Shown here in pieces: positions 21,899 through 46,845 of a DNA stretch of 49,364 nucleotides (position 1 is the stretch's first letter; each line of letters opens with the position of its first letter). Source of the stretch: Patescibacteria group bacterium (lineage in GTDB: Bacteria; Patescibacteriota; Minisyncoccia; 2-02-FULL-40-12; GWA2-44-9). Location: positions 1-49,364 of the forward strand of contig JBBUGO010000014.1 in NCBI GenBank assembly GCA_038056025.1, written 5' to 3'. Below the pieces are notes generated by a model. The model made no database searches, was not told the origin of the DNA, and saw nothing but the letters and a program-made list of their open reading frames with translations. The position numbers and the translations under genes were made by a program.

Positions 21899-22594
21899 TT
21901 ATCTGTTCTTAGCGATTCCCGAAATGAGGCCCATGATTCGATGAAAGAGATCGGTGCTGTTGACTGATATTTGCATAACCCCGTAGGGCAGGGAATTAAA
22001 AGGTTTCCTTCTCTGGCTCGAAATACTTATCGTTTGGATCGTCTTTCGGAAGTTGCTATAGGGAATTTTACAGATTTTTTGCCAAAAGTCCAGAATATAT
22101 GTCGGGTCTTGATGTCTGAATGTTCTGACATTCGCGATAATCTTATCATCAGATACCTCGCAAATTTCCCTGAGAAATCTCAGGAATATTCCTATCAGTT
22201 CTGGGTTGGAATTTGTTAGACTTACCCGGTGATAGGTTCTGGGACTTCCATTTCTTATGATGGGCCTCTTATATCCCTCTGCCCAGTAGAGAGCGCTACC
22301 CAGCATGAGGAGATCCCTCTTAGAAAGCTCGCGCACACTTTTTGCGGATTTCTCTCGGGTCTCTTGTGCTCGCACTTGAGCCAGGCGGGTCTGATTTTTA
22401 TTCCGCGCAAGAAGACCTCGCAGAGAAGCGGCACTTACCCGTACTTTAAGTCGCTTCTGTGCTTCTTCCGATAATGAAAGACCGGAAAACCATCCCGACA
22501 AGGTGCTTTTTGGGATTTTTAAAGATTTCGTTATTTCGTTATAACTTTTCCCCGTGATTCTTAGTTGATATGCTTTAGCTTTTTCGTACCTCAT
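21899..22594 (-). CDS. Free-standing LAGLIDADG-like homing endonuclease with N-terminal HTH
   Basis: 231 aa. The HTH is GKSYNEITKSLKIPKSTLSGW. A single LAGLIDADG-like motif reads LLMLGSALYWAEGYK, followed by VSLTNSNPELIGIFLRFLREI. The gene is AT-rich. Confidence 0.6.
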   Translation of the reverse strand: MRYEKAKAYQLRITGKSYNEITKSLKIPKSTLSGWFSGLSLSEEAQKRLKVRVSAASLRGLLARNKNQTRLAQVRAQETREKSAKSVRELSKRDLLMLGSALYWAEGYKRPIIRNGSPRTYHRVSLTNSNPELIGIFLRFLREICEVSDDKIIANVRTFRHQDPTYILDFWQKICKIPYSNFRKTIQTISISSQRRKPFNSLPYGVMQISVNSTDLFHRIMGLISGIAKNR

Positions 22595-22678: not shown

Positions 22679-22706
22679 TTGTAAAACGATGATTTCGTGC
22701 TATAGT
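22679..22706 (+). promoter_or_regulatory. Putative promoter of the intron-containing tRNA-Phe
   Basis: TTGTAA (22679-22684), a 16-nt spacer, then TATAGT (22701-22706), 9 nt before the tRNA 5' end. This is the same TTGTAA/TATAnT pattern seen upstream of ssrA. Confidence 0.45.
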
Positions 22707-22715
22707 CTCCTTCAC

Positions 22716-22997
22716 GCCGCGGTAGCTCAGTGGTAGAGCGCAGCCCTGAAATCTTTGGGGCTTTCCGTCGAGAGACGGATTGAAAAATCGGGTGAACTCG
22801 GGAAACACCCCGCCTTTGCGGGACAATCCCGAGCCAAGCCCCGACCATGTCGGGGAAGGTGTAGAGACTATCCCGCAAGGGAGTACTTCTGCCTAAGGCG
22901 GAGGGAAGCGCCCGAGTCGCTTTAAGCGATATGATATAGTCCAATTCAGCTTCGGAAGAGGCTGGCGTCGGGTGTTCGATTCACCCCCGCGGCACCA
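22716..22997 (+). tRNA. tRNA-Phe (anticodon GAA) interrupted by a group I intron; CCA encoded
   Basis: Exon 1 is 22716-22747 (GCCGCGGTAGCTCAGTGGTAGAGCGCAGCCCT). Exon 2 is 22955-22997 (GAAGAGGCTGGCGTCGGGTGTTCGATTCACCCCCGCGGCACCA). Joined, they form a canonical cloverleaf with anticodon loop CUGAAGA. Confidence 0.8.
22748..22954 (+). ncRNA. Group I intron (IC3-like, no internal ORF)
   Basis: P1 pairs AGCCCU (22742-22747) with GGGGCU (22757-22762), with U.G at the splice site. P10 pairs GAAGA (22955-22959) with UCUUU (22752-22756). The terminal G is at 22954. The core strings GAGCCAAGC, GAAGGTGTAGAGACTA and CCTAAGGC resemble the Azoarcus tRNA-Ile intron as I recall it. Confidence 0.75.
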
Positions 22998-22999
22998 GA

Positions 23000-23034
23000 A
23001 ATTATAAAAGCCCCGTTACGGGGCTTTTATAATT
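23000..23034. terminator. Bidirectional hairpin terminator
   Basis: The hairpin aattataaaagccccgttacggggcttttataatt lies between tRNA-Phe (+) and tRNA-Val (-). Confidence 0.7.
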
Positions 23035-24633: not shown

Positions 24634-24637
24634 AATG

Positions 24638-24710
24638 TGGGCCTGCCTGGATTCGAACCAGGAACCTAACGGATATAAGCCGTTTGCTCTAACCGTTGAG
24701 CTACAGGCCC
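24638..24710 (-). tRNA. tRNA-Ile (anticodon UAU)
   Basis: The reverse complement reads GGGCCTGTAGCTCAACGGTTAGAGCAAACGGCTTATATCCGTTAGGTTCCTGGTTCGAATCCAGGCAGGCCCA. The anticodon stem pairs AACGG with CCGTT, and the loop is CTTATAT. Confidence 0.8.
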
Positions 24711-46486: not shown

Positions 46487-46491
46487 TAGGG

Positions 46492-46845
46492 TGGAGATGG
46501 GCGGAATTGAACCGCCGTCCAAAGTCGGAATCCGTGGATGTACTACCGTGGTAGGCGATTTGGTATGGGCGTGAAGTAAAAACCGCCAAAATAATTCACA
46601 CCGTGTTCTCTAAAGTTTCGGCTGTACGCGAGAGAACGACGCTCCAGCCAGAGCTCGATAATAACACCCCATGATCTCGTATCGAGCATCCGAGTGGGAT
46701 GGCTTACCTAACCGAAGTTAGGCGAAAGCGTAGTTACTGGAATAGTTGCCAGTTACTTTGATTGGCCGAAAGATTTACGTGGCTCACAGCCATCCACGCG
46801 CGGCATCACACAGATGAACAAACTTCGTCGAAGCCGATCATCCCC
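46492..46845 (-). ncRNA. ssrA: tmRNA (SsrA)
   Basis: The 5' end reads GGGGATGATCGGCTTCGACG and the 3' end reads GGACGGCGGTTCAATTCCGCCCATCTCCA. The acceptor has a G3.U70 pair. The tag frame GGCAACTATTCCAGTAACTACGCTTTCGCCTAA (complement of 46718-46750) encodes GNYSSNYAFA*. Confidence 0.9.

Follow-up and report, generated by a model that had tools for sequence, protein, structure and literature searches.

A group I intron predicted between U33 and G34 of tRNA-Phe(GAA) genes across Patescibacteria

What interrupts the tRNA-Phe(GAA) gene of a Patescibacteria group bacterium, and how could a regular tRNA be recovered from it? The gene occupies positions 22716–22997 of a 49,364-nucleotide (nt) contig (JBBUGO010000014.1 of assembly GCA_038056025.1), the whole of which we refer to as the window, and it is split by a 207-nt insert that contains no open reading frame (ORF). 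We conclude that this insert is very probably a genuine, selectively maintained group I intron located in the anticodon loop, between U33 and G34; its named helices, its splice sites and its spliced product are supported by comparison among relatives. Features described below are on the forward strand unless stated otherwise.

The 5′ exon (22716–22747, 32 nt) comprises the acceptor part, the D arm, the 5′ strand of the anticodon stem (CAGCC), C32 and U33, ending in CAGCC-CU. The 3′ exon (22955–22997) starts with GAAGA-GGCUG, that is, with G34, A35, A36, G37 and A38 followed by the GGCUG strand of the stem, and continues through the variable loop, the T arm and the acceptor part to the discriminator A22994 (A73) and an encoded CCA (22995–22997). 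When the two exons are joined, ARAGORN recognises a 75-nt tRNA-Phe(GAA) cloverleaf with the loop CUGAAGA and the discriminator A73, in line with the perfect cloverleaf that the initial annotation of this sequence had assembled from the same exons. Identical exon architecture recurs in 115 other split tRNA-Phe genes among the matches listed. The interrupted gene is reported neither by ARAGORN with default settings nor by the Rfam tRNA model, a confusion of tRNA finders that had likewise been foreseen; with its intron search, ARAGORN calls the gene as Phe(gaa) i(34,207). The intron search also mis-assigns some of the relatives as Pro, Leu, Tyr or Ser. Because standard finders miss or mis-assign the split gene, Patescibacteria genomes may seem to lack tRNA-Phe, which would skew estimates of their completeness and coding capacity.

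The insert itself (22748–22954) ends in G22954, the predicted terminal (omega) G. A match to the Rfam group I intron model (RF00028, Intron_gpI) extends from 22738 to 22964, covers the full length of the model (positions 1–253) and scores 66.1 bits (E=1e-14 for the whole window), as compared to the curated gathering score of 50 bits; this was the model by which the initial annotation had proposed to check its reading. The same model scored above threshold in 15 of 17 other homologous loci tested. The diagnostic patterns have an expectation of 0 matches in shuffled sequence, and the window carries GAGCCAAGC at 22831–22839, GAAGGTGTAGAGACTA at 22855–22870 and CCTAAGGC at 22892–22899. All sequence statements of the initial annotation were found to be correct when the window was read again. 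An archaeal-style pathway, in which a protein endonuclease and a ligase would remove the insert from a bulge-helix-bulge while the resemblance to group I introns would be incidental, carries next to no weight in our assessment: it is contradicted by the covariance-model match and by the covarying group I helices described below, the sequence around the junctions shows no bulge-helix-bulge, and a transfer-messenger RNA (tmRNA) marks the window as bacterial.

A genome scan, using one genome per species, relied on the pattern GATATAGTCC, followed at a distance of 6–36 nt by GGAARA and then by the context of the T loop. The scan yielded at least 120 loci, almost all of them in metagenome-assembled genomes (MAGs) of Patescibacteria (the candidate phyla radiation, CPR), with matches in Paceibacterota, Saccharibacteria, Yanofsky-, Doudna-, Magasanik-, Uhr- and Falkowbacteria, Gracilibacteria and others. 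From these, 115 complete split tRNA-Phe genes could be rebuilt, to which the window gene is added (116). The introns of the 115 rebuilt genes measure 195–310 nt, and the products obtained by joining their exons are all Phe(GAA) and all have A73; across the 116 genes position 37 is G in 77 and A in 39. Judged from these genomes, the split tRNA-Phe is a widespread lineage feature of Patescibacteria and not a curiosity of one window. The Phe(GAA) host, described as unusual at the outset, is so only when set against the classical list of host tRNAs; within Patescibacteria, with at least 115 further cases, the description does not hold. Among the MAG contigs, L138, L140, L175, L183 and L195 are labelled ‘uncultured Gammaproteobacteria’ (binchicken) and carry CPR-type split tRNA-Phe genes together with CPR-like tRNA arrays; these labels are probably wrong.

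The family was then used to evaluate the pairings at the splice sites. In each of the 115 genes, an 11-nt guide near the 5′ end of the intron is complementary to nt 28–38 of the ligated junction. In the window, the GGGGCU part of this guide (22757–22762) pairs with AGCCCU of the 5′ exon (22742–22747) to form P1 (22742–22762), with the U22747·G22757 wobble marking the 5′ splice site, and its UCUUU part (22752–22756) pairs with GAAGA of the 3′ exon (22955–22959) to form P10, for which 96% of the cells are paired in the 61-sequence alignment described below. U33 stands opposite G in 115/115 genes, and the neighbouring pairs show compensatory changes: nt 32 is C:G in 111 genes and U:A in 4, nt 31 is C:G in 76, A:U in 38 and U:A in 1, and nt 30 is G:C in 71 and C:G in 43. 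At nt 37, the exon and guide bases are G37:C in 76 genes and A37:U in 36, with 3 exceptions; on this comparative evidence the covariation supports P10 and places G37 in the product. The terminal base of the intron is G in 116/116 genes. When introns were exchanged between genes with different junctions as a swap control, the pairing scores dropped. Thus P1 with its U·G wobble, the P10 guide UCUUU and the terminal G22954, all three of which had been proposed from the window alone, are upheld by the family.

Since GAA opens both the intron and the 3′ exon, shifting the splice sites by 0–3 nt would lead to the same product, and among these positions only the unshifted one gives U at −1 and G at the end of the intron. 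Moving both sites 4 nt further 3′ (after A22751 and G22958) would instead produce the loop CUGAAAA, with the A37 that is canonical in bacteria. ARAGORN accepts this product, too, as a valid tRNA-Phe cloverleaf, and the role of terminal G could fall to G22958. This junction is nevertheless highly improbable and was rejected: its 5′ site would be preceded by A rather than U and would have no wobble partner, the guide base opposite nt 37 changes with the exon base in the manner given above (C with exon G, U with exon A), and CUGAAGA is found in intronless relatives. The latter were identified in a metagenome scan for uninterrupted tRNA-Phe genes with the same D loop and the loop CUGAAGA, which returned at least 119 genes. 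Over a length of 72 nt, eight of these show no difference from the spliced products predicted for intron-bearing genes, and one intronless type is 2 nt away from the spliced product of the window gene. Because intronless genes in the metagenomes equal the predicted spliced products, the junction is fixed at U33|G34, and by this comparison the insertion point of the intron in tRNA-Phe is between these two nucleotides; at the sequence level, such an identity is the comparative counterpart to a junction read from cDNA. Otherwise matching tRNA-Phe genes are polymorphic for the presence or absence of the intron. Together with the covariance-model match and the covariation, the intronless genes bear out the original proposal of a group I intron between positions 33 and 34 of tRNA-Phe(GAA), and the survey of related genomes suggested along with it turned up intron-bearing and intronless tRNA-Phe genes alike.

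These genes also bear on G37. Its presence in the mature loop had been singled out as unusual, which within Patescibacteria it is not: as judged from the genes compared here (L129–L248 and the metagenome loci L249–L368), the intronless ones included, G37 is common in Patescibacteria tRNA-Phe. Bacterial tRNA-Phe normally has A37, and the position-37 modification pathway may differ in Patescibacteria; with G37 in a tRNA-Phe of bacteria, it becomes of interest how position 37 is modified in these organisms. A second class of tRNA-Phe genes has A37 together with the anticodon stem AAGGA/UCCUU.

To describe the core fold we aligned 61 short-tail introns, the window intron among them, with MAFFT (alignment A1), mapped the window helices onto the alignment and counted the pairs. 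For the structure as a whole, 88.1% of the cells are paired compared to 73.8% upon shuffling, with 0 of 500 shuffles reaching the observed value, and the covariation score is 0.376 as opposed to at most 0.121 when the partners are slid. The P2 hairpin (CCGUC-GAGA-GACGG, 22765–22778) is 98.4% paired and 5/5 of its pairs are changed on both sides. The 5′ strand of P3 (UCGGGUG, 22788–22794) is 100% paired with CGCCCGA (22909–22915), has 3 double-changed pairs and forms in the Rfam alignment, too. P4 (22797–22802 with 22828–22833) is built around P5 (22809–22813 with 22818–22822); by the pair counts P4 is 96% paired and mostly invariant, while in P5 84% of the cells are paired and both partners have changed in 5/5 pairs. 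These are followed by P6 (CC/GG) and P6a (CCCCGAC-CAU-GUCGGGG), which together span 22834–22859, and P6a is 96% paired with 7/7 pairs double-changed. P7, presumed to be the guanosine-binding helix, joins its 5′ strand G-A-GACUA (22864–22870) to UAGUCC (22937–22942); both strands are invariant and 100% complementary in the 61 sequences, which is consistent with pairing and uninformative for covariation. The P8 hairpin (UCGCU-UUA-AGCGA, 22917–22929) has 5/5 pairs double-changed and is present in the minimum free energy (MFE) fold, while only 67% of its cells are paired owing to length variants that MAFFT misaligned. The MFE fold of the precursor tRNA (pre-tRNA; −135.7 kcal/mol, z=−6.05) contains P1, P2, P6a, P8 and two elements to be discussed next, P7.2 and a tail hairpin. 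Some relatives (L132, L160, L176 and L192; A1 columns ~170–240) carry an extra ~100 nt in the P6a loop with the motif ...GGATTGCAAGCAAGC...GCCTGC..., a conserved peripheral element that is too short for an ORF.

The region between P7 and P3′ contains two extra hairpins (22871–22904), UCCC-GCAA-GGGA (22871–22882) and CUUCUGCC-UAA-GGCGGAGG (22886–22904), at a site that we take to be the IA-type P7.1/P7.2 position of the Michel–Westhof scheme. With its two hairpins this segment measures 36–38 nt, and in the match to the Rfam model it shows up as a 36-nt insertion. A first hairpin of the P7.1 type is present in about 28 of 61 relatives, and the rest carry a different insert. CCUAAGGC corresponds to the loop region of P7.2 and is not conserved among the homologues in A1. 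The core strings had originally been likened to those of the Azoarcus intron; for GAGCCAAG and AAGGUGUAGAGACUA the likeness stands, as both are shared, but CCUAAGGC is no conserved core element.

The P9 hairpin is absent, with 12 nt between UAGUCC and the terminal G, and the 61 family members have tails of 8–17 nt. In its place we find a tail helix (22947–22964), in which CAGCU of the intron (22947–22951) would pair with GGCUG of the exon (22960–22964) and which is supported by swap controls and by the MFE fold. In short-tail introns, a 5-mer located 1–3 nt before the terminal G repeats the 5′ strand of the anticodon stem, as in CAGCU for CAGCC and UAUCC for CAUCC; GACGC, UCGCC and UUGCC are further examples. 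The tail pairs 5/5 with exon nt 39–43 in 49% of the 61 short-tail introns versus 4.9% in swap controls, and the perfect pairings cover six different stem sequences. Long-tail members, mostly of the A37 class, have no tail helix. We infer from these sequences that, by holding the 3′ splice site in position, the tail stands in for the missing P9 and for the unzipped anticodon stem.

These two deviations bear on the subgroup. In IC3 introns, P7 leads directly to P3′, with no P7.1/P7.2 in between, and a P9 hairpin follows P7. Plain IC3 membership was rejected on the grounds that the P7–P3′ insert is present and P9 is absent. An IC3-like core is shared, and GAGCCAAG...AAGGTGTAGAGACTA is also found in tRNA-Leu and tRNA-Met introns of IMG/VR that have a short P3′–P8 segment. 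This broad core pattern was also tried as a probe for the family and discarded as too general, with at least 120 viral loci.

The arrangement suggests the following pathway. Transcription of the gene would give a 282-nt pre-tRNA, in which the guide 5′-UCUUU-GGGGCU-3′ (22752–22762) could pair with both exon ends: GGGGCU would form P1 with exon nt 28–33, the U33·G wobble defining the 5′ splice site, and UCUUU would form P10 with exon nt 34–38. Since P1 takes up the 5′ strand of the anticodon stem, the tail would pair with the 3′ strand, CAGCU binding the freed GGCUG and holding the 3′ splice site near the core. The core, made up of P3–P8 and P4–P6 with P7 as the guanosine pocket, would then catalyse two transesterifications, in which an external guanosine attacks after U33 and the 3′-OH of U33 subsequently attacks after G22954, and the final product would be mature tRNA-Phe with the loop CUGAAGA. 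By analogy, such guanosine-initiated two-step chemistry can be expected here, as two-step transesterification initiated by guanosine is established group I chemistry (PMC3984707), and splicing may proceed without protein help.

Several points weigh against this reading. Splicing in the host organism is deduced from sequence comparison, and a small intron that lacks P9 might depend in vivo on a protein cofactor. Being invariant, P7 and most of P4 lie beyond the reach of covariation, and the variable peripheral helices were misaligned by MAFFT. Lastly, the genome scan demanded GGAARA and a T loop downstream, by which design the tRNA-Phe host was partly selected; the 5′ exons were outside the scan pattern, yet complete split genes were rebuilt in 115 loci.

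Could the interrupted gene be a dead pseudogene, with the real tRNA-Phe located elsewhere in the genome? The visible portion of the genome amounts to only 49 kb and standard tRNA finders do not report the gene, both of which would fit this explanation, but we regard it as very unlikely. The guide and the exons co-evolve in more than 115 species, the cloverleaf is perfect, and the gene is flanked by a promoter-like site and a terminator hairpin. Moreover, neither the 49-kb window nor the 832 kb of CPR DNA that flanks the related loci contains an uninterrupted tRNA-Phe, and none of 120 relatives has an intact copy nearby. The promoter-like site (22679–22706), TTGTAA-16 nt-TATAGT with a TG extension, was assigned by consensus match only and ends 10 nt upstream of the tRNA. 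A perfect 35-nt palindrome (23000–23034, not assigned to a strand), AATTATAAAAGCCCC-G-TTA-C-GGGGCTTTTATAATT, was read from the sequence between the convergent tRNA-Phe and tRNA-Val(GAC) genes; its AT-rich arms surround GCCCC...GGGGC, and, although it was not flagged by the consensus scan, it is a probable bidirectional terminator.

The window resembles DNA of a Paceibacteria/Yanofskybacteria relative, going by its tRNA-rich region, its tmRNA and its nearest homologues that carry a name. The tRNA genes include, at 24637–24710 on the reverse strand, a tRNA-Ile with the anticodon UAU, which is rare in bacteria; six more are found in the flanks of related CPR loci. The tmRNA lies at 46489–46845 on the reverse strand (133 bits) and encodes the tag peptide GNYSSNYAFA.

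The divergent neighbour of tRNA-Phe (21899–22594, reverse strand) encodes a protein of 231 amino acids (aa) and accompanies intron-bearing tRNA-Phe genes. The protein consists of an N-terminal helix-turn-helix (HTH), a long helix and an unmatched alpha/beta C-terminal domain, has the invariant motif G..LYW.EG.K, and has more than 600 CPR homologues, which are annotated at most as HTH proteins. Of 75 intron-bearing loci whose flanks reach 900 nt or more on each side, 34 (45%) have the ORF no more than 400 nt (median 67 nt) away from the split tRNA-Phe, compared to 2 of 56 for intronless genes (Fisher p=2.5e-8, kinship among loci ignored). It was found beside none of the 16 intronless genes that are 4 nt or less away from a spliced intron-bearing gene (p=3e-4, kinship again ignored). 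In the reverse test, 4/4 homologues picked by the protein alone adjoin a split tRNA-Phe. The ORF is placed in three different arrangements relative to tRNA-Phe and is wedged between tRNA-Phe and tRNA-Gly(GCC) in 18 loci and between tRNA-Phe and tRNA-Pro(UGG) in 14. Locus L354 represents the empty state, in which intron and ORF are both missing and the two tRNAs are a mere 20 nt apart, and L228 the filled one; in all other strain-level pairs of intron-bearing and intronless loci the flanks were too diverged. Loci with the ORF beside an intron-bearing tRNA-Phe include L185, L176, L228, L369–L372 and ~50 others.

Searches of Pfam, PHROGs, NCBIfam and PDB detected only the HTH in the 231-aa protein and no nuclease domain of the LAGLIDADG, GIY-YIG, HNH or PD-(D/E)XK type. 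The motif GSALYWAEG had suggested a LAGLIDADG endonuclease, an assignment that is not supported, since sequence and profile searches returned the HTH only. Two AlphaFold models (predicted local distance difference test, pLDDT, 85.7 and 87.1) gave no Foldseek match at E<1e-3; a match to I-DmoI (E=0.09, template modelling (TM) score 0.27) was lost when the C-terminal domain was searched alone.

Going by its genomic association, the ORF may be a homing or a splicing factor, or may have some other role. One explanation is that the group I fold needs a protein helper in vivo, with the adjacent 231-aa protein acting as maturase or chaperone, in which case the intron would not be truly self-splicing. 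The proximity of the ORF to the split gene in 45% of the loci and its near-absence beside intronless genes, the outcome of the reverse test and the missing P9 all point in this direction, and the weak Foldseek matches include L7Ae-type RNA-binding folds (E ~0.2). An essential helper should, however, be universal, while 41 of the 75 intron-bearing loci have no ORF nearby (it could lie elsewhere); the N-terminal domain is an HTH of the DNA type, and no RNA-binding family was detected in the ORF searches. On balance we consider a helper role unlikely. Somewhat doubtful as well, if a possibility to be taken seriously, is that the split tRNA-Phe and the 231-aa gene are the two parts of one mobile element, which would have spread through Patescibacteria, the protein being an unrecognised free-standing homing endonuclease or a DNA-targeting helper directed against the intronless gene. 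The ORF-less intron would then ride along and protect the host gene, as in collaborative homing. Were this the case, the protein would represent a new homing-enzyme family, because its fold matches no solved structure, and its target would be an essential tRNA gene of bacteria whose genomes are tiny.

For RNA biology, the predicted arrangement means that the universally conserved U33 doubles as the splice-site U and that the anticodon stem is unzipped to build P1, with the lost strand replaced by the tail, a compact arrangement that differs from classical tRNA introns. Identical exons with and without the intron, together with the companion gene, would make a tractable system for the study of intron gain, loss and mobility in a radiation of uncultivated bacteria, and the finding would be of greater interest if the companion gene proved to be a mobility or splicing factor.

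The group I intron proposed here can be compared with several known systems. The IC3 intron in tRNA-Ile(CAU) of Azoarcus sp. BH72 resembles it in being ~200 nt long, ORF-less and located in the anticodon loop of a bacterial tRNA, in building P1 from bases of the anticodon loop and stem, and in having GAGCCAAG, AAGGUGUAGAGACUA and the P7 3′ strand ...AUAGUCC in common with it. The shared strings are also present in at least 120 introns on IMG/VR contigs. Unlike the window intron, with its two extra hairpins and its 12-nt exon-pairing tail, the Azoarcus intron, which is inserted after position 36, has a P9 hairpin and passes from P7 directly to P3′. Crystal structures of the Azoarcus sp. BH72 intron are cited in PMC3984707.

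The Anabaena-type tRNA intron is similar in that it is an ancient, vertically widespread intron of the anticodon loop that is present in some relatives and absent from others. It differs in its site, 34/35, as seen in locus L090 of a viral contig. In the Anabaena-type precursor the anticodon stem stays paired, whereas in the window intron P1 would consume the 5′ strand of the stem and the tail of the intron would replace it. For the Anabaena intron to be spliced, the exons must pair in the anticodon stem (Zaug et al. 1993, cited in PMC3984707).

Phage introns of the IA type (L128, L127 and L122 of IMG/VR) share the order GACUA - UCCCGNAAGGGA - GUA - hairpin - GAAGCGCC (P3′) - P8 - GAUAUAGUCC with the window intron. 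T4 td and Twort are IA-type phage introns with P7.1/P7.2. Phage introns such as the psbA intron of S-CBWM1 are locally similar by blastn; for a subgroup assignment through annotated phage introns, blastn gave short local matches only. In contrast to the phage introns, which interrupt protein-coding genes, the window intron has a cellular tRNA gene as its host, and bases of the tRNA take part in P1 and P10. On viral contigs, a Phe-targeted pattern detected only introns in protein-coding genes, through chance matches to GGAARA. Two intron calls on such contigs as ‘tRNA-Phe’ (L028 and L090) were rejected, as by the U/G rules both have UAA anticodons and the 34/35 site; L090 is a standard tRNA-Leu(UAA), and L028 has no long variable arm. 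ARAGORN intron calls on the IMG/VR contigs L001–L120 include Leu(UAA), Tyr, Lys(CUU), Arg(UCU), Thr(GGU), Met(CAU), Gln(CUG) and Ser(UGA). Some of the IMG/VR intron contigs may be misclassified cellular DNA; according to a 2014 review, all phage introns then known were in protein-coding genes (PMC3984707).

Collaborative homing combines a free-standing homing endonuclease with an ORF-less intron (PMC3984707; for F-CphI, PMC6083498). The locus studied here is alike in its ORF-less intron, in the separate gene beside the interrupted gene, in the shared presence and absence of the two and in its empty sites, and unlike in that the 231-aa protein has no recognisable nuclease domain.

Some CPR tRNAs carry group I introns and are hard to detect for that reason (Lui et al. 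2021, PMC8172020); they belong to the same phylum, element type and host class as the window intron. No description of a tRNA-Phe group I intron was found in the literature searched. A 2025 preprint probably describes such CPR tRNA introns; it may cover the 33/34 site of tRNA-Phe, which would lower the novelty of the intron itself. The features that make the window intron a variant are its 33/34 site, its Phe host, the P7–P3′ insert, the missing P9 and the tail helix.

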